Source of the DNA: Candidatus Arthromitus sp. SFB-mouse-Japan
GTDB lineage: Bacteria; Bacillota; Clostridia; Clostridiales; Clostridiaceae
Reading direction: 5' to 3'
Assembly (NCBI RefSeq): GCF_000270205.1
Contig: NC_015913.1
Location: 90,001-122,000 of the forward strand
DNA: 32,000 bases
The notes beneath the pieces are model-generated. The model was not told the origin of the DNA, ran no database searches, and worked only from the letters and a program-made list of their open reading frames with translations. This document shows positions 11,732-30,144 of the stretch, piece after piece. Both the position numbers and the translations under genes were made by a program. Numbering within the stretch: the stretch's first letter is position 1; every line of letters begins with the position of its first letter.

Positions 11732-13573
11732 ATGTGTGGGATAACTGGATTTTCCAATTTTAATAAGGATATAAGAAGTGAGTTTAATAATATATTAATG
11801 ATGAATGATTCGCTTTATCATAGAGGACCAGATGAATTTGATTATTATAAACATAAAAATGTGGTTTTGGGACATAGAAGGTTATCTATAGTTGACCCTA
11901 ATGGTGGGAAACAACCAATGCAAAGGATTGTAAATTTTCATAAATATACGATTGTTTATAATGGTGAAATATATAATACTGATGAGATTAGAGATGATTT
12001 GGTAAGTAAAGGTTATAGTTTTTATACTTATTCTGATACAGAAGTTGTCTTAATAAATTATATACACTATAAAGAAGAGTGTGTGAGTAAATTAAATGGT
12101 ATATTTGCGTTTTGTATATTTGATGAAGATAGGAATTGTTTATTTATGGCTCGAGATCAGTTGGGAGTTAAGCCCATTTTTTATAGTTTTAAAGATGGAT
12201 ATTTAATTTTTGGATCTGAGATAAAGTCTTTGTTAAAACATCCTAAAGTTAGTCCTATAGTTTGTGGTGATGGGATATTAGATCTTTTGGGTTTAGGACC
12301 AAGTCGTAGTCTTGGAGAAGGTATATTTAAAGACGTAAAGGAAATACCACCTGCACATTATTTATTTATATATAAAGATAGGATAACACTTAAAGAATAT
12401 TGGAGACTTGAGTCGAAGGAACATAATTTGACTCTCGAAGATACAAAAGAAAAATTATCTTTAATGCTTGAAAATGCTATAAAGAAGCAAATGGTATCAG
12501 ATAGGGGGATTTTTTCTTTTCTATCAGGAGGTATAGATTCATCTCTTATATCAGCTGTAGTATCAGATGAATTTAACAAAGAAGGTAAGATTTTAGATAC
12601 ATTTACTGTAGATTATGTAGATTATGATAAGGATTTTGAGGGTAATGAGTTTGAAGTTACAAGTGATAAATATTTTGTTAAAGTTGTTAATGAATCTATA
12701 AAATCGAATAATAGAATTATTACAATTAAAAATGAAGATTTATTCTATGCTTTAGAAGATGGGCTTTATTCAAGTGATATTCCTTCTATGGCTGACATTG
12801 ATACTTCCTTGTACTTATTTTGTAAAGGAATTAAAAATTATGGTACCGTTGGATTATCTGGAGAATGTGCAGATGAAATATTTGGAGGTTATCCTTGGTA
12901 TTTAAATGAAGAAGATTTGAAGTTAAATAAGTTCCCTTGGAATAGATTTTCGGGTATAAGGAAAGAACTTTTTAATGATAAGATTAAAAATTTAGACTTC
13001 GATTCTTATATTAAAAATAAGTTTGATGAAACTTTAAAGGATGTTTGTATTTTAGATAGTGATAGTGAACTTGATGCAAAAATAAGAAAGATGACTACTC
13101 TTAATGTTAAGTGGTTTATGGTAACTCTTTTAAATAGGAAAGATAGAATGAGTATGGCAAATAGTTTGGAGATAAGAGTTCCTTTTGCAGATAGAGAGCT
13201 TGTTGAATTTTCTTATAATATTCCTGCTAAATTTAAATTCCTAAATGGAAGAGAGAAGGGTATACTTAGAGAAGTAAGTAGAAAATTTTTACCAGATTCT
13301 ATAATAGATAGAAAAAAGAGTCCTTACCCTAAAACTCAAAGTGCTATATACACTAATCTTGTAGTAAATGAATTATCAAATATTTTGGATAATAAATCTA
13401 ATCCTATTTTTGAGATTATAGATGAAAAAAGTGTTAGGAAATTAATTGAGAGTAGAGGAAATTCTTATACGAAACCTTGGTTTGGTCAACTTATGAGAGG
13501 GCCTCAGCTTATGGCATATTTAATACAAATTAATATGTGGCTTAAGAAATATAATATAAATTTATCTTTGTAA
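11732..13573 (+). CDS. asnB: Asparagine synthase (glutamine-hydrolysing)
   Basis: Begins MCGITGF (N-terminal Cys nucleophile of class-II glutamine amidotransferases). PP-loop SGGIDSS in the synthetase domain. 613 aa. Confidence 0.9.
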   Translation: MCGITGFSNFNKDIRSEFNNILMMNDSLYHRGPDEFDYYKHKNVVLGHRRLSIVDPNGGKQPMQRIVNFHKYTIVYNGEIYNTDEIRDDLVSKGYSFYTYSDTEVVLINYIHYKEECVSKLNGIFAFCIFDEDRNCLFMARDQLGVKPIFYSFKDGYLIFGSEIKSLLKHPKVSPIVCGDGILDLLGLGPSRSLGEGIFKDVKEIPPAHYLFIYKDRITLKEYWRLESKEHNLTLEDTKEKLSLMLENAIKKQMVSDRGIFSFLSGGIDSSLISAVVSDEFNKEGKILDTFTVDYVDYDKDFEGNEFEVTSDKYFVKVVNESIKSNNRIITIKNEDLFYALEDGLYSSDIPSMADIDTSLYLFCKGIKNYGTVGLSGECADEIFGGYPWYLNEEDLKLNKFPWNRFSGIRKELFNDKIKNLDFDSYIKNKFDETLKDVCILDSDSELDAKIRKMTTLNVKWFMVTLLNRKDRMSMANSLEIRVPFADRELVEFSYNIPAKFKFLNGREKGILREVSRKFLPDSIIDRKKSPYPKTQSAIYTNLVVNELSNILDNKSNPIFEIIDEKSVRKLIESRGNSYTKPWFGQLMRGPQLMAYLIQINMWLKKYNINLSL

Positions 13574-16600: not shown

Positions 16601-17213
16601 TGAAAAAGAGGTTTTAGGCATATATATTTCTGGACATCCTATACACAAGTACAAAGAAATATTAGATAAAGTTTGTACAAATTCTATTTCTGATTTTTAT
16701 GATGATGATATGAAAATTAATGATGGATATGAGGTTGTAATAGGTGGATCAGTGAGAGAATTTAAGAAAATTATAACTAAAAATAATTCTATGATGTGCT
16801 TTTTATATGTTGAAGATAAGTATTCTTCAATAGAGTGCGTTGTTTTCCCTAAGGTATATGAAAAATTTAATTATTTAATAAATGATAATAGTATTGTTAT
16901 AATAAAAGGTGTGTTTAAAAAAAATGATGATGTATTTAAAATTATAGTAAATGAGATAATAGGAATTGAAGAATATGATAGGTTTAAGTTGTATATTTTA
17001 TGTAAAAGCTTGAAAGAGATAACAAATTCTTTTAATAAGGCTAAGGATATTTTAATTAGTAATAGGGGACATGTTAATGTTAATTTGTATTCCTTGGAGG
17101 GAAAGAAGGTTTTTAGAGTGAATGATTATGGTGTTAATTTAAGTAATAGTCTTATTTGTGAGCTGAACAAAGTATTTTCACAGGAATTTGTAAAGGTAAT
17201 TATTACTAAATAA
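13674..17213 (+). CDS. dnaE: DNA polymerase III alpha subunit (DnaE type)
   Basis: 1179 aa. N-terminal PHP domain (FVHLHVHSEFSLLDS), polymerase core (PDIDSDF, GLLKMDFLGLRTL) and a C-terminal OB-fold region. Confidence 0.95.
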   Translation: MNDFVHLHVHSEFSLLDSSCKIRNLVERAKELGMTSLAITDHGVMYGCLEFYKACKMYGIKPIIGCEIYVANKSMDIKNADKDNFTSHLVLLVKDEIGYRNLLKIVSDSFIRGFYYKPRVDIEYLKEHSEGLIALSACLSGGISKYILRNDIDGAKNLSIIYKEIFKEDFYLEIQDHGIEDQKKVNNLLLEFSSELDIKLVVTNDVHYIKKDDANAHDVLICIQTGSNVDEERRMKYHGDQFYLKSKDEMYEAFPNYMDGLLNTIEIRDKCNFEYKFHENMPPKYIMDNSLEPFEYLKRLCYLGLINKYDEFSHEIEIFKIEDILDDSKFEILKEEIGKNITDTKKKLVDRVKYELNLINSMGFVDYFLIVWDFIKFCMEKSIPTGPGRGSVAGSIVAYVLNITKVDPIKYSLIFERFLNPERISMPDIDSDFCNERREEVISYVRDKYGDQNVSNIITFGTMAAKACIRDVGRAMNYPYGEVDKIAKMVPNMLNITIDLALLYNKELNDLYNNDLRVKKLIDISKRLEGLPRHTSIHAAGVIISPYNLTDLIPVKKDGDMLVTQFPMANLEELGLLKMDFLGLRTLTVINDCIKIIEKNKGIKIDLDNIDFDDQNVFNMIGDGKTCGVFQLESFGMTSFMKELKPNSIEDIIAGISLYRPGPMDEIPNYIKNKNNIGDIKYLTKELEDILNVTYGVIVYQEQVMEIVQKLSGYSLGRSDLVRRAMAKKKHEEMEKERKKFVYGYKDGEEIIKGCVNNGIDEKIAHKIFDQMVDFASYAFNKSHAAAYAIIAYETAYLMRYYKSEYICALLNSVINNMDKVCYYIRFGESMNIKIFPPCVNNSHNKFIVEGEYIYFGLSAIKNLGEGACEKIVYYREKYGKFKNEYDFFKACVKCSINKKGIESIIKSGALDVFNISRSYLLMNFEKIVDGISKEFRENLEGQMNLFGLIGREDDKTFKLNNRDDLYDDSDKNLLFEKEVLGIYISGHPIHKYKEILDKVCTNSISDFYDDDMKINDGYEVVIGGSVREFKKIITKNNSMMCFLYVEDKYSSIECVVFPKVYEKFNYLINDNSIVIIKGVFKKNDDVFKIIVNEIIGIEEYDRFKLYILCKSLKEITNSFNKAKDILISNRGHVNVNLYSLEGKKVFRVNDYGVNLSNSLICELNKVFSQEFVKVIITK

Positions 17214-21255: not shown

Positions 21256-21284
21256 TTGCCTACATAAAATTAATATGTAGGCAA
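21256..21284. repeat. 11-bp perfect inverted repeat at the chromosome/prophage junction
   Basis: TTGCCTACATA (21256-21266) and TATGTAGGCAA (21274-21284) around a 7-nt loop. The repeat spans the integrase stop codon. Confidence 0.6.
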
Positions 21285-22460
21285 TATTATATTTTCAAAT
21301 ATATCTACTGATTGTTTAGCTAACTTATCTGTATTATGGGTATAAGTATTAAGTGTAGTTTGAATATTATTATGTCCTAGTCTATGTTGTACATCTTTAA
21401 TGTTAGCACCATTTTCAACTAGTAATGTAGCGTGGGTGTGTCTTAATGAGTGGAAATTAAAAGGTATACCTAATTCATAATTAATAACACGCGACGCGTA
21501 TTTAAATGAATCTGGTGTTAATAACATTCCGTTACTTTTTACGCACACCATATTTAATAAATGTTCTTTTAAATTTAGAGAACTTGTTGTGATTTTATCA
21601 TTTATGTTGTATTGTTTTATATAATGTTCTCCGTATTCTAAGCGTTTAATATCAATATATCTTTTATGATACTTTAGTGCGTTTTTCAAGGTATTACCTA
21701 TATTAATTATTCTGCTAGAGGAGGTGGTCTTAGGTTCACCAAAATACCAAGACGTATCCTTTTTATATATTAGTTTGTTAATATTGATTGTGTTATTATC
21801 TAAATCAATGTCATCCCACGTTAAACCCATTGCTTCACCTATGCGACAACCAGTATGATAACCAATCATTAAAGGGATATAGAAAGATGATCTTTCGGGA
21901 AAGCGTTTTATTATAGCGTTAAAATCATCATTAGTTATAATTTTATGTTTATCTGTAGTTTTGGTATTATTATACTTAGGAATTTTAACATATTGCATAG
22001 GGTTATTCTTTAGAAAATTCATAGGATGTACTGAGTAGTTAAGGGAACCACTCAATAAGGATATTATATTATTTAGATGATTTTTTGATATACCAGTTAA
22101 ATATTTGCTATTTATAAAATCTTGTAATTTACCAGGAGTTAAAGAAGTTAATTTTAAAATGCCTAAAGAGGGTTTAATATGTTTATCTATTATTAATCTA
22201 TAAGAGCGTTGAGTATTGTATCTGCAATTTAACAGTACATAAGCATCAAACCATAAATCCATATAATCTGATACTGATATATTTGTTTTTTGAAGTTGTT
22301 CACCATTTTCGTAATCTTCCAAAGCCTTTCTTAAAGCTGCTTCAGCTTCTTTTTTGGTTCTACCTCCAACTCTTTCAATCCTTTTTCTTTTTCCGTCGAC
22401 CCTAGCTGCCTCAAACGAGTAATACCACTTGTCTCCTCGTTTTCTAACACTTCCGGTCAT
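21270..22460 (-). CDS. int: Phage tyrosine integrase
   Basis: 396 aa. Catalytic region GCRIGEAMGLTWDDIDL, HSLRHTHATLL, LGH....T...YTH (R..HxxR..Y). SD GGAGATATAAAA precedes the ATG. Confidence 0.93.
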   Translation of the reverse strand: MTGSVRKRGDKWYYSFEAARVDGKRKRIERVGGRTKKEAEAALRKALEDYENGEQLQKTNISVSDYMDLWFDAYVLLNCRYNTQRSYRLIIDKHIKPSLGILKLTSLTPGKLQDFINSKYLTGISKNHLNNIISLLSGSLNYSVHPMNFLKNNPMQYVKIPKYNNTKTTDKHKIITNDDFNAIIKRFPERSSFYIPLMIGYHTGCRIGEAMGLTWDDIDLDNNTININKLIYKKDTSWYFGEPKTTSSSRIINIGNTLKNALKYHKRYIDIKRLEYGEHYIKQYNINDKITTSSLNLKEHLLNMVCVKSNGMLLTPDSFKYASRVINYELGIPFNFHSLRHTHATLLVENGANIKDVQHRLGHNNIQTTLNTYTHNTDKLAKQSVDIFENIILPTY

Positions 22461-22694: not shown

Positions 22695-23999
22695 ATGTTT
22701 ACTGGTATTAAGCTTAAGAATTTTAAATCACTAGTTGATTTTGAAGTTAAATTCCCTAGAAATAGAAAATTAGTTATAATTTATGGAGAAAATGGTGTTG
22801 GAAAATCTAATTTTATAGATGCCTTTAGTATTTTGAGAAAACTAGTTACTGGTAGACCCTTTGATGTAGATGATTTTTTGGAATTGGCAAATCTTAAATT
22901 CAATCACGGTCTTAGTAATATAGACATGGATGCTGAAGTTATTACAGATTTGTTTAAGACATCTAACCTTAAAAGGATTATTGAGTCATGTAAGACTATA
23001 AACTCAGAAGGCGAAAATATGGTATTATCATTTGACTTTACTTTAAGAGGAAAAAAAGGATCGTATATTATAGAAACTGATGATAATAGGCTAATATCTG
23101 AGAGATTAGAATATGTATATAATAAGCAAATTGTTGAATTCTTTAATGTTAATAATGATGAAATTTATTTAAACGAAAAAGTGATAAAAAATAAAGAATA
23201 TTACGAAGAACTGATAAATAATTGTGAAAAGTATTGGGGTAAAAATACTTTGACGTCTATGATATTTAAAGATATACAGTCAAAAAACGATAAGTATATG
23301 TCTAAATCTCTGACTAAGAATATGATAGAGATAATCGATTACTTTAGTAGTTTAAATATTAGTGTCAGTGGTCAAATCTTATTTCCTGGTTTACATTTAG
23401 GTGAAGGAATTACACAGATGTCAAATCAGGCAGAACTAGATAAGAATGAAAAAATTTTGGATGATATATTCACTCGTTTATATCCAGATATAAAACAGGT
23501 GTATTACAAAAAAGAGATAATTGATGATGGTAAAATAAATTATAAGTTGTACTTTAAAAAGCTTGTAGGTAATAAAATTTTAGATATAGATATTGAACGA
23601 GAGTCTAAAGGTACCAAACAAGTATTAAATATAACGAAACAAATTTTATATGGTTTAGATAAACAAGTGTTAATCATCGATGAATTTGATACAGGTATAC
23701 ATGATATATTAGCTAAATCTATGTTGCAGAGTTTATATGATAGTTTAGATATGCAAATAATTATTACTACGCATAATACATTACTCATAGAAGCTAAAGA
23801 CTTATGTAAAAACGCATATGTACTAACGCATAATATTGATGGAAGTAAGGATATGATAGCTATATCTGATTTTGAAAAAAGAATCCATAGTAATTTAAAT
23901 ATTAGAGATAGATATCTAAGAGGAATGTATGGAGGTGTGCCAATCCCGCTCGATATAGATTTTTCTGATTATAGTGATGCTAATTTGGAGGATTGTTAG
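22695..23999 (+). CDS. ABC/AAA_21-type ATPase (COG1106-like; AbiLi / AriA / OLD-ATPase-like), defence candidate
   Basis: Walker A GENGVGKSNF at residues ~31-40, signature-like ESKGTKQVL, Walker B/D-loop VLIIDEFDTGIH, H-loop ITTHN and a C-terminal RDRYLRGMYGGVP tail. SD GGTGGTGA precedes the ATG. Confidence 0.8.
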   Translation: MFTGIKLKNFKSLVDFEVKFPRNRKLVIIYGENGVGKSNFIDAFSILRKLVTGRPFDVDDFLELANLKFNHGLSNIDMDAEVITDLFKTSNLKRIIESCKTINSEGENMVLSFDFTLRGKKGSYIIETDDNRLISERLEYVYNKQIVEFFNVNNDEIYLNEKVIKNKEYYEELINNCEKYWGKNTLTSMIFKDIQSKNDKYMSKSLTKNMIEIIDYFSSLNISVSGQILFPGLHLGEGITQMSNQAELDKNEKILDDIFTRLYPDIKQVYYKKEIIDDGKINYKLYFKKLVGNKILDIDIERESKGTKQVLNITKQILYGLDKQVLIIDEFDTGIHDILAKSMLQSLYDSLDMQIIITTHNTLLIEAKDLCKNAYVLTHNIDGSKDMIAISDFEKRIHSNLNIRDRYLRGMYGGVPIPLDIDFSDYSDANLEDC

Positions 24000-24587
24000 A
24001 TGGGAGGTAAGAAAGCACAAATACAGTATTTACGCTGTATACTAATTTGTCATGGCAAATCAGAAAAAGAATTTATGGAGACTATAAAGCAAAATTTACG
24101 TTTAAAGATACACATAGAGTCAGATAAAAAAGGAAGTAAGTCTATTCAGATAAATAGTCTGAATAAGACTTTGAAAAATCACAAGTATGGTAAACGTGAT
24201 AATTTTTTAAGATATTTTGAGGATATAGAATTAATAAAAGGTAAAATAACATCTGAGTTTAAAATTTTTACGTTATTGGATACGGATGATAAAGAAAAAG
24301 AAATAAACTTGATAAAATATTTGAATAAAGAAATGTTTAAAGAGCATCATCTTTATGATCATATAGTACCTATTTATAATACTCCTAATTTAGAAAGTGT
24401 TTTTGAAGAAATTGGTCATGTATTTAAGAATAAAGGCGAGGCAAGAAAAAGAGAGTATAAAGATTTATTGAAACCATATCCAACCCCTAAACTTGCTCGG
24501 AATTATTTAAAAGATTTATCGGGAAAATTTGAAAAGAGCAAAAACACTAATCTTAATCATGTTATTAATTTTCTCCTTAATATATAA
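24000..24587 (+). CDS. Small Toprim-like partner protein (RloB / DUF4276 / AbiLii-like), defence candidate
   Basis: The ATG abuts the ATPase stop (TAGATG) and is preceded by GGAGG. The N-terminal ILICHGKSEKEF resembles the CEGxxTE strand-turn of RloB-type Toprim proteins. A later LLDTDD resembles the Toprim DxD motif. Family assignment is from memory of motifs, not from a search. Confidence 0.6.
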   Translation: MGGKKAQIQYLRCILICHGKSEKEFMETIKQNLRLKIHIESDKKGSKSIQINSLNKTLKNHKYGKRDNFLRYFEDIELIKGKITSEFKIFTLLDTDDKEKEINLIKYLNKEMFKEHHLYDHIVPIYNTPNLESVFEEIGHVFKNKGEARKREYKDLLKPYPTPKLARNYLKDLSGKFEKSKNTNLNHVINFLLNI

Positions 24588-24602: not shown

Positions 24603-24768
24603 GAAATATAAGCTTACATTAAATTTATAAGTGCTTCGCGAAGCTATATTAATACTTGATTGTAGTAGAATACTTGGTATTGCTATTCATAGATGAATTA
24701 TGTAGAATATTAGTGTTCGCAAAAATAGTATGTCTATTTATGATTAGCAGCTGTTTTTAAATTTAACG
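24603..24768 (+). promoter_or_regulatory. CRISPR leader 1 (166 bp) with predicted sigma-70-type promoter
   Basis: Near-identical to 26605-26770 (about 3 substitutions by eye). -35 TTGCTA (24680-24685), 17-nt spacer, -10 TAGAAT (24703-24708). Contains the palindrome GCTTCGCGAAGC at 24633-24644. Confidence 0.6.
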
Positions 24769-24999
24769 GTCGCACCTCACGCAGGTGCGTGGATTGAAAT
24801 GAGGATAAAGGAGTTGGCAATTTACATAGTGCATCGTCGCACCTCACGCAGGTGCGTGGATTGAAATTACGTAGTTCTATAACTTTACCAATTATGTGTA
24901 GTCGCACCTCACGCAGGTGCGTGGATTGAAATATATCTAATATTTTAGCTAACTCTAACTGAGTCAGGTCGCACCTCACGTAGGTGCGTGGATTGAAGG
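24769..24999 (+). CRISPR. Mini-CRISPR array 1: four 32-bp repeats and three spacers (35/33/35 bp); type I-C-like repeat
   Basis: Repeats GTCGCACCTCACGCAGGTGCGTGGATTGAAAT at 24769-24800, 24836-24867, 24901-24932 and 24968-24999. The last repeat is degenerate (C14T, terminal AT>GG). Internal hairpin GCACCT/AGGTGC. The leader lies upstream and the degenerate repeat is distal, which gives + orientation. Confidence 0.93.
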
Positions 25000-25014
25000 T
25001 GCCAGACATATAAT

Positions 25015-25048
25015 AAAACCCCACTTGAAATTAATCAGGTGGGGTTTT
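25015..25048. terminator. Bidirectional hairpin between array 1 and the truncated repressor
   Basis: AAAACCCCAC (25015-25024) pairs with GTGGGGTTTT (25039-25048), with A/T runs on both sides. Confidence 0.6.
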
Positions 25049-25434
25049 AAAATCTCCGTCTAAGTTCTACGACCTTTCCGATTATGTGTATAGGTTTATC
25101 TGCAATGTCATTTTTATCGTAGTACATAGGCTCATATCTAGGATTTAACGACACAAGGCTTATACCGTCCTTGTGTTTTATTATTTTTTTACACGTTGCC
25201 TCGTCACCATTAACGCAGACTATAGCTATGTCTCCAGAGTTAACGTCTTGCTGTTTCCTGACTATTACGACATCTCCAGCATCCATTGTGGGAGACATCG
25301 AATCACCCTTGATTACGAGAGCAAAATACTCTCCTTGAGATGCAAGTTTAGGTGATATCTCTTCCCAACCGATAATTTCTTCAATCGCCGTTATGGGTAT
25401 ACCAGCTATAACAGTACCTAGTATGGGTATTTTA
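25047..25434 (-). pseudogene. 5'-truncated copy of the LexA-like repressor (S24 peptidase domain only)
   Basis: Homologous to 27113-27499. Encodes KIPILGTVIAGIPITAIEE..GDSMSPTMDAGD..HIIGKVVELRRRF but has no HTH domain. The reading frame has no start codon upstream of MSPTMD. Homology stops at ~25434. Confidence 0.8.
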
Positions 25435-25604: not shown

Positions 25605-26375
25605 TTGGTGAAGAAGGAGATAATATGGGGGTGTTTAAACATGGAAGAAAAAGAAAAGTTGCTTAAAAAATCTAAAGAAATTTTTAGCTTAGTTAGTTGT
25701 ATGTATTGTTATTATAGTGGTCCTTATAAAATTGAAACTGTTTGTATTTTATTATGTAATGCTTGGGAATTAATGTTGAAAGCTTATATAATCGGTAAGA
25801 AGGGGAAAGAAGGAATAGTATATAAAAATAAACAGAATAAGGGTAGGACTATTGGATTAAATGAATGTATAAGTAAAGTATTTACGAATAAGCATGATAT
25901 ATTACGTAAACATTTGGAGTCTGTAATTAGATATAGGAATTCGGTTGTACATTATACAGTTGATAGTTTTGACTTATCTTTATACTCTAAAATAGAGTAT
26001 TGTATAGTGAATTTTAAAGCGAAAATGTGTGAACTTCACAATGTTAATATGTCCGATATGATAGTTAACCAGGCTAATGAAGAAATCTTAAAAAATGATG
26101 TCGATTTGTATAAGTATAGTAAAAAGAGTTTGTGTAGGGAAATAAATAATGTATTGAAATCTTTGGGGATTGAGTTTAAAATCGATAGTCAATCCTTTGA
26201 ATTGTTTGATAGGGTGTACGGAATTAAAGAAAATAAAGAGTATTGTCTTATAAGTAATGTTAATAACAGGCCATCTTATAGATATTCATCAAGAGTTTTA
26301 AATTTTATCGTAGGATTGATACAAAAAAATCCTAACAATATTAAAGAAGTCTTAAAGAATAAAATAAAAAAATAA
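25605..26375 (+). CDS. HEPN-like (Rx4H motif; DUF3644-like) protein, abortive-infection/toxin candidate
   Basis: The motif NAWELMLKAYII, then ~55 residues, then IRYRNSVVHY (R-N-S-V-V-H = Rx4H) matches my recollection of DUF3644/HEPN proteins. The start is ambiguous: TTG 25605 in the ORF track or ATG 25641. Confidence 0.6.
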   Translation: MVKKEIIWGCLNMEEKEKLLKKSKEIFSLVSCMYCYYSGPYKIETVCILLCNAWELMLKAYIIGKKGKEGIVYKNKQNKGRTIGLNECISKVFTNKHDILRKHLESVIRYRNSVVHYTVDSFDLSLYSKIEYCIVNFKAKMCELHNVNMSDMIVNQANEEILKNDVDLYKYSKKSLCREINNVLKSLGIEFKIDSQSFELFDRVYGIKENKEYCLISNVNNRPSYRYSSRVLNFIVGLIQKNPNNIKEVLKNKIKK

Positions 26376-26604: not shown

Positions 26605-26770
26605 GAAATATAAGCTTACATTAAATTTATAAGTGCTTCGCGAAGCTATATTAATACTTGATTGTAGTAGAATAATTGGTATTGCTATTCATAGATGAAT
26701 TATGTAGAATATTAGTGTTCGCAAAAATGGTGTGTCTATTTATGATTAGCAGCTGTTTTTAAATTTAACG
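26605..26770 (+). promoter_or_regulatory. CRISPR leader 2 (166 bp) with predicted promoter
   Basis: Duplicate of leader 1. -35 TTGCTA (26682-26687), 17-nt spacer, -10 TAGAAT (26705-26710). Palindrome GCTTCGCGAAGC at 26635-26646. Confidence 0.6.
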
Positions 26771-27067
26771 GTCGCACCTCACGCAGGTGCGTGGATTGAA
26801 ATTTATTTGTCCAAATTCTAAGTTGTCAAATATTTTGTCGCACCTCACGCAGGTGCGTGGATTGAAATTAGTAGGCTTGTCCTCCTTACTTTTAAACTCC
26901 CGTCGCACCTCATACAGGTGCGTGGATTGAAATTAAGATTTTTTATTGATGTGTACATAATCACCCCTGTCGCACCTCACGCAGGTGCGTGGATTGAAAT
27001 CTTTATAATGGATTTGCTTTATGAGTTATTTAGATGTCGCACCTCACGCAGGTGCGTGGATTGAAGG
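26771..27067 (+). CRISPR. Mini-CRISPR array 2: five 32-bp repeats and four spacers (34/33/35/35 bp); same repeat family
   Basis: Repeats at 26771-26802, 26837-26868, 26902-26933 (loop variant CATAC), 26969-27000 and 27036-27067 (terminal AT>GG, as in array 1). Confidence 0.93.
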
Positions 27068-27082
27068 TGTCATACATATAAT

Positions 27083-27114
27083 AAAAACCACTTGAAATTA
27101 ATCGAGTGGTTTTT
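27083..27114. terminator. Bidirectional hairpin between array 2 and the repressor gene
   Basis: AAAAACCACT (27083-27092) pairs with AGTGGTTTTT (27105-27114). Confidence 0.6.
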
Positions 27115-27826
27115 AAAATCTCCGTCTAAGTTCTACGACTTTACCAATTATGTGTATAGGTTTGCTTACAATGTCATTTTTATCATAGTACATAGGCTCA
27201 TATCTAGGATTTAACGACACAAGGCTTATACCGTCCTTGTGTTTTATTATTTTTTTACATGTTGCTTCATCACCATTAACGCAAACTATAGCTATGTCTC
27301 CAGAGTTAACGTCTTGCTGTTTCCTGACTATTACGACATCTCCAGCATCCATTGTGGGAGACATGGAGTCTCCTTTAATTTTTAACGCAAAGTACTCTCC
27401 TTGAGATGCAAGTTTAGGTGATATCTCTTCCCATCCGATAATCTCCTCAATCGCCGATATTGGGATACCCGCTATTACGGTGCCTAGTATGGGTATTTTT
27501 ACGCAGGCTTGTACGTTTAGACCAAGACCATTTTTATATGATATTACTTTAGTAGAACTGGTAACTTGTATAGGTTGCTGTGCATTGATAAATTCAATAT
27601 GATCTTGATCATTTAATAGTACGGATTCATCGATTCCTAATGCTTGGGCAATTATTTTAATTTTGGACTGAGGAATATCGTTGATACCAGTCTCTATCTT
27701 ATTTATTGTAGACCTAGCTTTATAACCGCACCTTTTTGCCAATTCATCTTGCGACAATCCACGCATTAGTCTAATACGTTTGATTTTGTCGCCTAGTTTC
27801 TTTTTTTCAATATTATTAGTATCCAT
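27113..27826 (-). CDS. Phage repressor, LexA/CI-like (Xre HTH + S24 peptidase)
   Basis: The N-terminal HTH (LSQDELAKRCGYKARSTINKIETG) is followed by an S24 domain with the GDSM Ser and a downstream Lys (CKKI). It is divergent from a cro-like gene. Confidence 0.92.
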   Translation of the reverse strand: MDTNNIEKKKLGDKIKRIRLMRGLSQDELAKRCGYKARSTINKIETGINDIPQSKIKIIAQALGIDESVLLNDQDHIEFINAQQPIQVTSSTKVISYKNGLGLNVQACVKIPILGTVIAGIPISAIEEIIGWEEISPKLASQGEYFALKIKGDSMSPTMDAGDVVIVRKQQDVNSGDIAIVCVNGDEATCKKIIKHKDGISLVSLNPRYEPMYYDKNDIVSKPIHIIGKVVELRRRF

Positions 27827-27965: not shown

Positions 27966-28169
27966 ATGGATAATATAAGGCTAGTGGATTGTATACACAA
28001 ATCAGGATTAAAACACAAATACATTGCAGGTCAACTGTCATTAAGTAAGCAGGGGTGGAGTAATAAAATCAACAACAGGACAGAGTTTAGGCTGTCAGAA
28101 ATTAAAAGATTATGCACATTACTTAACCTTGATAGTAAGCAGAGAGATCATATTTTTTTTGAGGATTAA
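27966..28169 (+). CDS. Cro-like small HTH protein
   Basis: 67 aa, divergent from the repressor. HTH-like segment (HKYIAGQLSLSKQGWSNKINN) and a strong SD. Confidence 0.7.
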   Translation: MDNIRLVDCIHKSGLKHKYIAGQLSLSKQGWSNKINNRTEFRLSEIKRLCTLLNLDSKQRDHIFFED

Positions 28170-28185
28170 GTAGATTTAAAATATA

Positions 28186-28258
28186 CAAAGTAATGATAAA
28201 TAACGATAAGTTACGCTAAGTTACAACTAGTTAAATAATAACGTAAAAATAGATTGAA
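28186..28258. repeat. Intergenic linker cassette, copy 1 (others at 28807-28866 and 30091-30144)
   Basis: TTACGCTAAGTTACAACTAGTTAAATAATAACGTAAAAATAGATTG resembles TTACGCTACGTTACAACTAAGTAAATAATAACATAAAAAGGAGATTG in copy 2. In copy 1 the SD is decayed (ATAGATT versus AGGAGATT) and no gene follows. Confidence 0.7.
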
Positions 28259-28287: not shown

Positions 28288-28503
28288 TTACCTTCTCGTT
28301 GGGTCATCTGATCTACCGACCAAATAATCAATAGATATATTGTAATAATCAGCTAATTTAATCAACGTATCATATTTAGGTTTAGATTTCCCATATTCGA
28401 GATTTTGATATGATCTATCGTTGATTTTAAGATAATTGGCTATATCTAATTGTGTTAGATTATTAGATAATCTTAGGGTTTTTAGTCTATCTTTAAAATC
28501 CAT
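28288..28503 (-). CDS. Xre-family HTH protein (71 aa), leftward member of divergent pair 2
   Basis: MDFKDRLKTLRLSNNLTQLDIANYL..SIDYLVGRSDDPTRR. The GTG start at 28545 in the ORF track overlaps the + strand -35 box, so the ATG at 28503 is preferred. Paralogue of 29554-29772. Confidence 0.8.
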   Translation of the reverse strand: MDFKDRLKTLRLSNNLTQLDIANYLKINDRSYQNLEYGKSKPKYDTLIKLADYYNISIDYLVGRSDDPTRR

Positions 28504-28538
28504 AAAAACATACCTTATTAAAAAATAAATAAAAATAG

Positions 28539-28567
28539 TTGACACGAACTAAACCTCGTGATATAGT
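28539..28567 (+). promoter_or_regulatory. Promoter for the 63-aa HTH gene
   Basis: TTGACA (28539-28544), 17-nt spacer, TATAGT (28562-28567). The inverted repeat ACCTCGT/ACGAGGT (28553-28559 / 28579-28585) brackets the -10 element. Confidence 0.6.
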
Positions 28568-28614: not shown

Positions 28615-28806
28615 ATGAATAATTTAAAAAAAATTCGAAATAAAGCTGGTCTAACCCAGATGTATTTATCTAGTCTGATAAATATAAACGTGCGTAGCTA
28701 CCAGAGTATAGAGCTCGGTAAAAGTTTACCGAGAGTAGATAGAGCATTAGCAATAGCAAAGATATTAAATACAACTGTGGAAGAACTATTTGGTAAAGAT
28801 AAGTAA
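28615..28806 (+). CDS. Xre-family HTH protein (63 aa), rightward member of pair 2
   Basis: MNNLKKIRNKAGLTQMYLS..AKILNTTVEELFGKDK. SD AAAGGAGG. Paralogue of 29890-30090. Confidence 0.8.
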   Translation: MNNLKKIRNKAGLTQMYLSSLININVRSYQSIELGKSLPRVDRALAIAKILNTTVEELFGKDK

Positions 28807-28866
28807 TGCTAAATTACGCTACGTTACAACTAAGTAAATAATAACATAAAAAGGAGATTGAGACAA
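28807..28866. repeat. Intergenic linker cassette, copy 2
   Basis: Shares ..ATAATAACATAAAAAGGAGATTGAGACAA followed by ATGGCAAATGA with copy 3. The first five codons (MANDI) are shared by the two downstream genes. Confidence 0.7.
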
Positions 28867-28938
28867 ATGGCAAATGACATAAAAGTATTTGAGCATGATG
28901 AATTTGGACAAATAAGAACAGTTTTAATTAATGAATGA
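28867..28938 (+). pseudogene. Detached N-terminal fragment of the antirepressor Bro-N domain (frameshifted)
   Basis: A good SD is followed by ATG and MANDIKVFEHDEFGQIRTVLINE*. The tandem AATGAATG at 28930-28937 shifts the frame. Removing one AATG fuses this fragment in frame to the 28931 ORF (..IRTVLINDQTWFVGKDVARALGY). Confidence 0.65.
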
Positions 28939-29551
28939 CCAAACATGGTTTGTTGGAAAAGATGTAGCTAGGGCTTTAGGATATGCAAATGGAAGCAGAG
29001 ATATAAATAGACATGTTGAGATCGAGGATAAAGTTTTGAGAAAATTACCACAATACCAAAACGGTAGTTTGGTATCAAACACAGTATTAATCAACGAATC
29101 AGGATTGTACAGTTTAATTTTATCAAGCAAATTGCCTAAAGCTAAGAAATTTAAAAGATGGGTGACTAGTGATGTATTACCATCAATACGGAATACAGGG
29201 GCTTATATAGCATCTAACAGACTTGATGAGTTAGATGATAGGGTTAAAAAATTAGAATCTAAAACAGTAATTGGCAAAGCCCAAAAGCCGATTGTGGGGG
29301 TTAACACATCAGAAATAGCATTTAGTTTAGGGATATCGCCTAAAGCTTTATTTGAATTTTTGAGATCGACTGGAGTCGCTAATCGTAAATGGGATAAATA
29401 CGAGTTGCACGATGATTATGTTGGATTTGGTTATATCCAGAATGCAAGAGTAGCTTATGAGAGATGCTACGAAAAAAGAATTAAATTTTGGACGCTTAAA
29501 GGCGTTTGGTTTGTAATGGATTTATATAATAAAAGGCAAGCCAATAACTAA
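28931..29551 (+). CDS. Phage antirepressor (Bro-N + KilAC/ANT domains), 5' part split off by a frameshift
   Basis: WFVGKDVARALGY..INESGLYSLILSSKLPKAKKFKRWVTSDVLPSIR is a Bro-N domain. The C-terminal half is KilAC-like (IAFSLGISPKALFEFLRSTGV..). There is no SD before the ATG at 28931. Confidence 0.75.
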   Translation: MNDQTWFVGKDVARALGYANGSRDINRHVEIEDKVLRKLPQYQNGSLVSNTVLINESGLYSLILSSKLPKAKKFKRWVTSDVLPSIRNTGAYIASNRLDELDDRVKKLESKTVIGKAQKPIVGVNTSEIAFSLGISPKALFEFLRSTGVANRKWDKYELHDDYVGFGYIQNARVAYERCYEKRIKFWTLKGVWFVMDLYNKRQANN

Positions 29552-29553
29552 GC

Positions 29554-29772
29554 TTACCTTCTAGTTGGATTAGTAGTCTCGCCGACTAAATAATCAATAG
29601 ATACATCGAAAAACCTTGCCAAAGCTATTAGTATATCAAAAGTAGGTTTGCGAGCATTCAACTCATAATTTTGTATACCTCTTTCGCTTATCCCTATAGC
29701 TTTAGCTAAATCTTTTTGGGTTATATTATTTTTAAGCCTTAAACCTTTTAAATGATTACCAAAATCAAACAT
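29554..29772 (-). CDS. Xre-family HTH protein (72 aa), leftward member of pair 3
   Basis: MFDFGNHLKGLRLKNNITQKDLAKAIG..SIDYLVGETTNPTRR. The longer ORF in the track (to 29820) runs into the + strand promoter. Confidence 0.8.
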   Translation of the reverse strand: MFDFGNHLKGLRLKNNITQKDLAKAIGISERGIQNYELNARKPTFDILIALARFFDVSIDYLVGETTNPTRR

Positions 29773-29807
29773 TTTACACATCTCGCTAAAAATTTTATTA
29801 AAAATAG

Positions 29808-29836
29808 TTGACACGAACAATTGTTCATGTTAATAT
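29808..29836 (+). promoter_or_regulatory. Promoter for the 66-aa HTH gene, with an embedded palindrome
   Basis: TTGACA (29808-29813), 17-nt spacer, TAATAT (29831-29836). The perfect palindrome GAACAATTGTTC (29815-29826) lies in the spacer. Confidence 0.6.
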
Positions 29837-29889: not shown

Positions 29890-30090
29890 TTGCATAATAA
29901 TTTAAAGCCAATCCGTGATAAATTGGGTCTTACCCAAAATCAGGTATCAGATATAGCGGAGATAACTTTGAGAAGCTACCAAAACTATGAATACAGTAAA
30001 CGGATACCTAAAGTAAACATCGCATTAGATATAGCAAAAGCTCTTAACACAACGGTGGAAGAACTATTTAGTAATGATAAATTACAATAA
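29890..30090 (+). CDS. Xre-family HTH protein (66 aa), rightward member of pair 3
   Basis: The TTG start lies 6 nt after AAGGAG. (M)HNNLKPIRDKLGLTQNQVS..AKALNTTVEELFSNDKLQ aligns with the 63-aa paralogue. The start at 29821 in the ORF track lies inside the promoter. Confidence 0.75.
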   Translation: MHNNLKPIRDKLGLTQNQVSDIAEITLRSYQNYEYSKRIPKVNIALDIAKALNTTVEELFSNDKLQ

Positions 30091-30144
30091 ATTACGTTAA
30101 GTAATGATAAGTAACATAATAACACAAAAAGGAGATTAGGACAA
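30091..30144. repeat. Intergenic linker cassette, copy 3
   Basis: AAATTACGTTAAGTAATGATAAGTAACATAATAACACAAAAAGGAGATTAGGACAA precedes ATGGCAAATGAT. Confidence 0.7.

Follow-up and report, generated by a model that had tools for sequence, protein, structure and literature searches.

Cas-less CRISPR arrays in SFB prophages: perfect targeting of immunity genes in rival variants, and a partial match of one spacer to the antirepressor of its carrier

The prophage variants that occupy a single chromosomal site in SFB carry CRISPR arrays which perfectly target the immunity genes of one another, and never their own. These arrays have no cas genes of their own and appear to be of type I-C, and it is likely that they serve in reciprocal exclusion between prophages, and that the partial match of array 2 spacer 1 to the antirepressor gene of its own carrier is a by-product of homology. 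SFB is a key immune-modulating symbiont of the gut, and is very hard to culture. The arrays of its prophages provide a natural record of CRISPR-mediated competition between prophages, which can be read from sequence alone, and they also yield strain markers and a PAM derived empirically for the SFB system. Both the locus and the kind of system were already known, and it is the assignment of the targets and the reciprocal pattern in SFB that are new.

The prophage locus and its two arrays

The window, that is, the whole stretch of 32,000 nucleotides that was analysed, consists of a part of the chromosome of SFB-mouse-Japan and the left arm of the prophage SFBMP01. Positions 1-21217 are occupied by housekeeping genes (uvrA, ftsW, a PBP gene, uvrC, murB, rapZ, a cofD-like gene, whiA, asnB, dnaE, pfkA, pyk, and a TRAM-domain methyltransferase gene), and the prophage begins with an integrase gene which adjoins the host gene of the TRAM-domain RNA uracil-5-methyltransferase family. 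The PfkA, Pyk, integrase, and S24 repressor proteins encoded here all match proteins of Candidatus Arthromitus sp. SFB-mouse-Japan exactly. Both arrays lie between this integrase gene and the repressor gene (Table 1), and the same position is found in all the variants whose loci span both of these genes (L009/L018, L021, L022, and L024).

The SFBMP01 locus and its two cas-less arrays, which are the same two arrays considered here, were described by Kuwahara et al. (2011; PMC3158464), who reported significant homology for none of the spacers. The statement that the spacers match nothing is revised by the present results, in which targets or partial targets in the SFB variants could be assigned to four of the seven spacers, and the PAM has been derived.

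Table 1. Position and strand of the main features of the window.
Feature	Position	Strand	Remarks
Prophage integrase (tyrosine integrase)	21270..22460	-	Left end of SFBMP01; protein an exact match to BAK55868 of SFB-mouse-Japan
Array 1 leader	24603-24768		Duplicate of the array 2 leader
CRISPR array 1	24769..24999	+	Four repeats, three spacers
Array 1 spacer 2	24868..24900	+	33/33, TTC PAM, in the 204-aa S24 repressor gene of the rival variants L009 and L011
Array 2 leader	26605..26770	+	98% identity with the leader of array 1
CRISPR array 2	26771..27067	+	Five 32-nt repeats of probable type I-C, four spacers of 33-35 nt
Array 2 spacer 1	26803..26836	+	TTATTTGTCCAAATTCTAAGTTGTCAAATATTTT; leader-proximal
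Array 2 spacer 2	26869..26901	+	32/33 self-match at 30288-30256 (minus strand), HTH_17 gene; ATC flank
Array 2 spacer 4	27001..27035	+	34/35, TTC PAM, repressor/cro intergenic region of L017 and L025
cI/LexA-like repressor	27113..27826	-	HTH_3 and Peptidase_S24
Protospacer for spacer 5 of the L009 array	27596-27630		Perfect, TTC-flanked, in the window repressor gene
Protospacer for a spacer of L019	28399..28433	+	Perfect, TTC-flanked, in the 85-aa HTH gene 28288-28545
Antirepressor, N-terminal fragment	28867..28938	+	23 codons, then TGA; translation MANDIKVFEHDEFGQIRTVLINE*
Partial protospacer in the resident antirepressor	28882..28915	-	27/34; spacer positions 1-16 perfect
TTC PAM (GAA on the plus strand)	28916..28918	-	Last two bases of Arg AGA and first of Thr ACA
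Antirepressor body, 206-aa ORF	28931..29551	+	Bro-N profile positions 9-96 and ANT/KilAC domain, in another frame
Frameshift site	28935..28939	+	ATGAC here, G in the L009 broB-type allele; net +4 nt; junction of the mosaic patch
Protospacer for the newest spacer of L026 and L029	29573..29607	-	Perfect, TTC-flanked, in the 88-aa HTH gene 29554-29820

The repeat of array 2 (GTCGCACCTCACGCAGGTGCGTGGATTGAAAT) begins at positions 26771, 26837, 26902, 26969, and 27036, the last copy being degenerate (it ends in GAAGG), and a total of nine copies of the repeat are found in the window. In its folded form, the repeat has a stem of 7 bp, closed by a 5-nt loop, and then an 11-nt 3' tail that ends in ATTGAAAT. 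The length of the spacers (33-35 nt, within the 33-37 nt range of the type) and the AT-rich leader, with promoter-like sites at 26682-26710 and 26718-26746 that are consensus matches only, are those of a type I-C array.

No cas genes were found within the window. An identical 32-mer repeat lies directly downstream of the type I-C cas operons of two other genomes, represented by the contigs L001 and L002. In L002, the genes beside the repeat encode Cas5c, Cas8c, Cas7/Csd2, Cas4, Cas1c, and Cas2, and the two ORFs scanned in L001 encode Cas7/Csd2 and Cas4. Exact matches to the repeat in genome contigs came from the Halanaerobiales, the Eubacteriales, and Paenibacillus, and no cas genes adjoin the array of the Paenibacillus contig (L005). 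The assignment of the repeat to type I-C is supported by these comparisons, given that an identical repeat adjoins type I-C cas operons and that the hairpin carries an 11-nt tail.

The account of the host cas locus is that of the 2011 description (PMC3158464). According to this description, the prophage arrays share a 160-bp leader and the 32-bp repeat with a chromosomal array of 13 units, CRISPR3. Six cas genes are reported ahead of CRISPR3, in comparison with the seven of a complete type I-C set. Seven Cas proteins were found in SFB-turkey. A scan of metagenomes for the leader-repeat junction, aimed at the host cas locus, returned no match, and a protein search with the Cas1c of L002 as the query returned no Arthromitus protein among the best 120 matches listed, the best of which was from Lactobacillus johnsonii (98%).

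A number of other features surround the arrays. The leader, the array, and an S24 gene form a module that is duplicated in tandem (24603-25341 and 26605-27407, with 92-98% identity), and in the first copy the S24 gene is reduced to an 83-aa C-terminal remnant (25047-25298), which looks like a recombination scar between two immunity types. A hairpin at 27093-27124, composed of CCACTTGA, a 6-nt loop, and TCGAGTGG, with a run of A and a run of T at its flanks, separates array 2 from the repressor gene, which is convergent with it. This hairpin, which was read by eye and is absent from the list of the terminator scan, looks like a bidirectional terminator. A similar hairpin follows array 1, where there is a sub-threshold Rfam match to NsiR1 (25010-25072); the identification of this hairpin as NsiR1 was rejected, and the match was treated as chance. 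The region between the integrase and the repressor is also a small defence island, in which both arrays are accompanied (22695-24587 and 25605-26375) by the genes of an AbiLi-like AAA ATPase (PADLOC, 1.3e-40) and its 195-aa partner, and by that of a DUF3644/EC042_2821 protein, which matches the candidate system PDC-S19 (5.6e-54).

Targets of the spacers in the prophage variants

The survey of targets covered 20-odd contigs of SFB prophage variants at the same integration site, which were retrieved through the window proteins and a Bro-N homologue, and a population set of about 58 unique spacers from SFB prophage arrays. Because the related loci reach only ~6 kb beyond the immunity region in either direction, early genes are over-represented in the survey.

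A set of 15 spacers differ from their best non-self target in no more than one position, and the 5' flank of these targets is TTC in 12 cases, TTT in two, and ATC in one. The background frequency of TTC is 1.3% of the prophage trinucleotides, and the probability that 11 of the first 14 flanks would be TTC by chance is about 6e-19. The preliminary description had given TTC as the canonical PAM of type I-C, and the targets show it to be the PAM of this system. This agrees with the findings of Rao et al. (2017; PMC5602111), in which TTC is the canonical PAM of type I-C and TTT is an alternative, and the SFB arrays are also similar to that system in the range of their spacer lengths.

Perfect targets were found for 10 spacers, every one of them in a variant other than the carrier of the array, and no perfect self target was found for any of the roughly 58 population spacers or the seven spacers of the window. 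The self-matches that do occur are all degraded, either by altered flanks (ATC, CTC, TTT, or TCC) or by five to seven mismatches. The targets are concentrated in the immunity genes, that is, the repressor, the cro-like HTH genes, and the antirepressor. This targeting is reciprocal, in that the window and the variant L009 hit the repressor genes of each other perfectly, through array 1 spacer 2 and spacer 5 of the L009 array, respectively. In the S24 genes of the window itself, the same array 1 spacer reaches 27/33 at 27124-27156 and 24/33 at 25058-25090, and both these sites are flanked by TCC. Other genes of the window are perfect targets of the arrays of L019, L026, and L029 (Table 1), and a site that overlaps the L019 target, at 28391-28424, matches spacer 3 of L009 in 32 of 34 positions.

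Array 2 spacer 2 differs from its self-match in the HTH_17 gene by a single synonymous mismatch, at seed position 3. Judging by the sequence of the site, the seed mismatch and the ATC flank would spare it from this spacer, in an escape-like state. The same state was found in 19 of 19 related loci, and the source allele was never observed there. Scans of IMG/VR for this spacer, and for array 1 spacer 1 and array 2 spacer 3, returned no matches. The HTH_17 gene has an Asp codon (GAT) at the flank of this site, where a Glu codon (GAA) would give a TTC PAM. A flipped or slipped acquisition as the source of the ATC flank was considered and rejected, the other flank being CTT.

Degraded self-matches are also present in L009, one at 16671-16704, in a VapE-like primase gene (31/34, with a CTC flank), and another at 13226-13258 (28/33, with a TTT flank). 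The spacers involved have better, TTC-flanked targets in other variants, and these self-matches are consistent with self-avoidance through differences in the PAM or the seed.

The genomes of the SFB hosts are reported to be >98% identical (PMC3371716), and the wide differences in spacer content among the arrays of the variants indicate recent and active acquisition. Some of the SFB prophage arrays have at least 14 spacers, as in L029 (1354-2310), and in this array two adjacent spacers of 33 and 35 nt are near-duplicates, derived from the same protospacer. The first spacer of the arrays of L015 (1446-1479), L020, and L023 ends in GTCGCACCTC, which is the start of the repeat, and overlaps a spacer that is intact in L017 and L024, which indicates a deletion that joined an incomplete spacer to an incomplete repeat.

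In the proposed process, arrays 1 and 2 would each be transcribed from their own leader, and the transcripts would be processed and loaded by the type I-C Cas proteins of the host. The resulting crRNAs would then direct the destruction of related, heteroimmune SFB phages when these superinfect the lysogen. We infer the expression of the arrays and the use of the host Cas proteins, as well as the lack of both cleavage and priming at the resident site discussed below.

This pattern appears, from the sequences, to fit that of the virus-borne mini-arrays which mediate heterotypic superinfection exclusion (Medvedeva et al., 2019; PMC6858448; and the survey of phage and prophage mini-arrays cited there), and it would also be expected from what is known of the C. 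difficile prophage arrays. In both SFB and the mini-arrays, leader-bearing arrays without cas genes are located inside a virus, the repeat and the leader copy those of the host, and the spacers target related viruses rather than the carrier, with the variants targeting one another. The mini-arrays have only one or two spacers, however, whereas the SFB arrays have up to 14 or more, and the SFB arrays also differ in belonging to a temperate phage of a bacterium, in a gut symbiont, in their apparent type I-C, and in targeting immunity genes. The arrays of the C. difficile prophages (Hargreaves 2014 and Boudry 2015, as summarised in PMC6127314) are similarly located inside the prophages of a clostridial host. 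The C. difficile arrays depend on a chromosomal cas operon and are transcribed, according to the same source, whereas the SFB arrays are known from their sequence alone, and the former are of type I-B, with a repeat and a PAM that differ from those of SFB.

Spacer 1 of array 2 and the resident antirepressor

Spacer 1 is leader-proximal, and is therefore the newest spacer of array 2. The same array also occurs in a single independent contig from a metagenome (L006 and L028, which are one contig). Within the window, the best non-self match of this spacer lies inside the antirepressor gene (28915-28882, minus strand), and all the coordinates and counts given for this match in the preliminary description were confirmed, including the 27 of 34 identical positions, the perfect positions 1-16, and the TTC flank. 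The mismatches are at spacer positions 17, 18, 19, 20, 22, 23, and 31, and the 5' flank on the protospacer strand reads TGTTC. The 19-mer formed by TTC and the 16-nt seed occurs only once in the window. When read in frame, the spacer encodes the peptide KIFDNLEFGQI, in comparison with KVFEHDEFGQI in the resident gene.

The antirepressor gene is located among HTH genes of the cro/cI type, and encodes a Bro-N domain followed by an ANT/KilAC domain, interrupted by a frameshift. The stop codon of the N-terminal fragment (28936-28938) is 18 nt past the PAM, and the body of the gene scores 3.6e-25 against the Bro-N profile and 4.7e-06 against the ANT profile. When 4 nt are removed, Bro-N profile positions 1-96 are restored. 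A look-up of the 206-aa ORF returned no record.

The 16 perfect nucleotides and the PAM correspond to the codons GAA TTT GGA CAA ATA AGA A, which encode EFGQIR(T), the most conserved motif of the Bro-N N-terminus, and the PAM-distal half of the spacer covers variable codons (KIFDNL in the spacer, KVFEHD in the resident gene). The same 16-mer, adjoined by TTC, is found in the antirepressor of the C. difficile phage phiCD505 (28/31), in nine low-GC contigs of IMG/VR (29/34), and in both of the Bro-N paralogues of L009 (27/34). The resident gene is one of the poorer partial matches of spacer 1, and is not singled out by it, because unrelated phages match the spacer better. An intact seed and PAM are thus not special to the resident gene, but fall on conserved EFGQIR(T) codons which recur in phages of the C. 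difficile type.

A protein search with a chimeric query found the protein P0061 (MVNDIKIFDNSEFGQIR...) on the contig L008. The L008 allele, which encodes KIFDNSEFGQIR, matches spacer 1 in 30 of 34 positions, with a TTC PAM, and three of the four differences (AAA/AAG, ATA/ATT, GAC/GAT, and TTA/TCA) are synonymous and fall at the third codon position. A closer protospacer is thus present in a related phage, and the earlier suggestion that spacer 1 came from the homologous antirepressor of another phage is reinforced. On this comparison, spacer 1 probably derives from the antirepressor allele of a related phage, near that of L008, and the source phage itself is only inferred, because no perfect protospacer was found. 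The search for such a protospacer, which the preliminary description had proposed, covered the INPHARED phages, IMG/VR, the JGI metagenomes, and a protein-guided search of Logan/ENA, and yielded none. The best match of blastn against 50,697 phage records was phiCD505 (28/31), exact 34-mer and 20-mer scans of IMG/VR and a degenerate pattern in the JGI metagenomes recovered no perfect protospacer, and a 42-aa N-terminal protein query of Logan/ENA returned only seven short, unrelated matches.

The 27/34 self-match is a by-product of homology, a "homology shadow" left by a spacer that is directed at a rival, and not a special device for self-targeting, because the seed and the PAM fall on EFGQIR(T) codons that are common to low-GC Bro-N genes. 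A partial self-match of this kind is in itself ordinary, given that any spacer acquired from a conserved gene of a rival phage will also partly match the homologue in its carrier. Under this reading, spacer 1 would have been taken beside a TTC PAM from the 5' end of the Bro-N antirepressor of a rival phage, with an allele near that of L008, and the mismatches would stall the R-loop at the resident copy, which would be left uncleaved.

The number of effective mismatches depends on the pairing of the crRNA. Positions 6, 12, 18, 24, and 30 are flipped and non-pairing in type I-C (PMC10579709), so the seven mismatches are reduced to six, because position 18 does not pair, and five of the six lie at positions 17-23. 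The Dvu type I-C system loses its activity at two to six mismatches, in any position, when tested in plants (PMC10579709), and cleavage of the resident site would therefore be unlikely. The expectation that the mismatches should block interference is thus upheld, by comparison with a different type I-C system, assayed in plants.

Alternative readings of the resident match

The first alternative assumes that the resident gene once had an L008-like N-terminus that was targeted by the array, and that a short gene-conversion patch of the broB type then replaced the protospacer, left the 4-nt frameshift at its edge, and allowed the array and the gene to coexist. The window and L008 are identical in 81/81 positions upstream, in 54/79 positions across 28871-28949, and in 293/304 positions downstream. 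The divergence is thus limited to a patch of ~80 nt that holds both the protospacer and the frameshift, the latter at its edge, and this patch is nearer to the broB type of L009 (65/79). Other self-matches in the SFB prophages, moreover, show changes of the PAM or the seed (ATC, CTC, TTT, TCC) that are typical of escape. Mosaicism and the shuffling of modules occur throughout the immunity region, however, so a patch of this type is not unusual, and its first half (GAGCATGAT) is not broB-like. The comparison of the sequences gives no direction of change, and L008 is not itself a perfect target of spacer 1. In addition, the damage caused by the Cas3 of type I systems usually takes the form of large deletions, rather than conversions of 80 nt. 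Taken with these objections, the escape of a formerly targeted gene appears unlikely.

The frameshift is a net insertion of 4 nt at the mosaic junction, and no link was shown between the spacer match and the broken reading frame that the preliminary description had remarked on. The antirepressor copy of L008 is truncated by a separate 1-nt deletion, which suggests that the antirepressor genes of SFB decay repeatedly.

In a second alternative, Cascade would bind the resident site and recruit Cas3 and Cas1-Cas2-Cas4, new spacers would be taken from the prophage, and the lysogen would be exposed to an autoimmune hazard. The TTC PAM and the 16 perfect PAM-proximal bases would favour this process, the very different spacer content of near-identical SFB strains implies that adaptation has been active in the lineage, and type I-E systems are known to prime from targets with many mismatches. 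Priming in type I-C occurs at perfect targets and at targets with a single seed mismatch (Rao et al., 2017; PMC5602111), whereas the resident site has seven mismatches. Priming at six effective mismatches is not known in type I-C, and the Dvu system is intolerant of mismatches (PMC10579709). Spacer 1 is also leader-proximal both in the window and in L006/L028, with nothing newer beside it, and no perfect self target was found either for the seven spacers of the window or for the approximately 58 spacers of the population. All the spacers of the prophage arrays that map near 28.9 kb, the region in which the preliminary description had proposed to look for new acquisitions, are in the arrays of other variants. 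The absence of self-primed clones is in itself weak evidence, because such clones would kill themselves. The risk of self-priming that had been raised for the lysogen thus gained no support, and this process is considered distinctly improbable at the resident site.

In a third alternative, Cascade guided by the crRNA of spacer 1 would bind the seed and the TTC within the resident antirepressor gene (codons 6-17) with no recruitment of Cas3, and would block transcription of this gene and help to maintain lysogeny. Spacer 1 would then be both a weapon against rival phages and a lysogeny lock on its carrier, through the silencing of an anti-lysogeny gene. The site is 15 nt inside the ORF, with its PAM and seed intact, and there is a precedent in the CreTA modules of the haloarchaea, in which the seed-only binding of a type I Cascade represses without cleaving. 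Repeat-like regulatory RNAs have also been reported (PMC10120712). The antirepressor gene is already inactivated by the frameshift, however, and spacer 1 matches the allele of the rival better. The same seed and PAM are also found in variants that lack the spacer, and in unrelated phages, so the spacer and the site do not co-vary. A regulatory role of this type is thus very improbable.

A chance resemblance in AT-rich DNA can be discounted with near certainty: the best background matches of the other spacers do reach 20-24 of their 33-35 positions, but only one of 2000 composition-preserving shuffles of spacer 1 reached 27/34 in the window (with a mean best of 22.5), the reading frame of the match gives a homologous peptide, and other Bro-N genes match the spacer to varying degrees.

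The region around the antirepressor also contains an AT-rich element of ~60 nt, which is present in three copies with 78-85% identity (28190-28249, 28793-28852, and 30071-30130). The second copy immediately precedes the ribosome-binding site of the antirepressor gene, the third copy immediately precedes that of the HTH_17 gene, and the first copy is downstream of a 67-aa DUF739-like ORF (27966-28169). This element may represent the boundary of a recombination or regulatory module.
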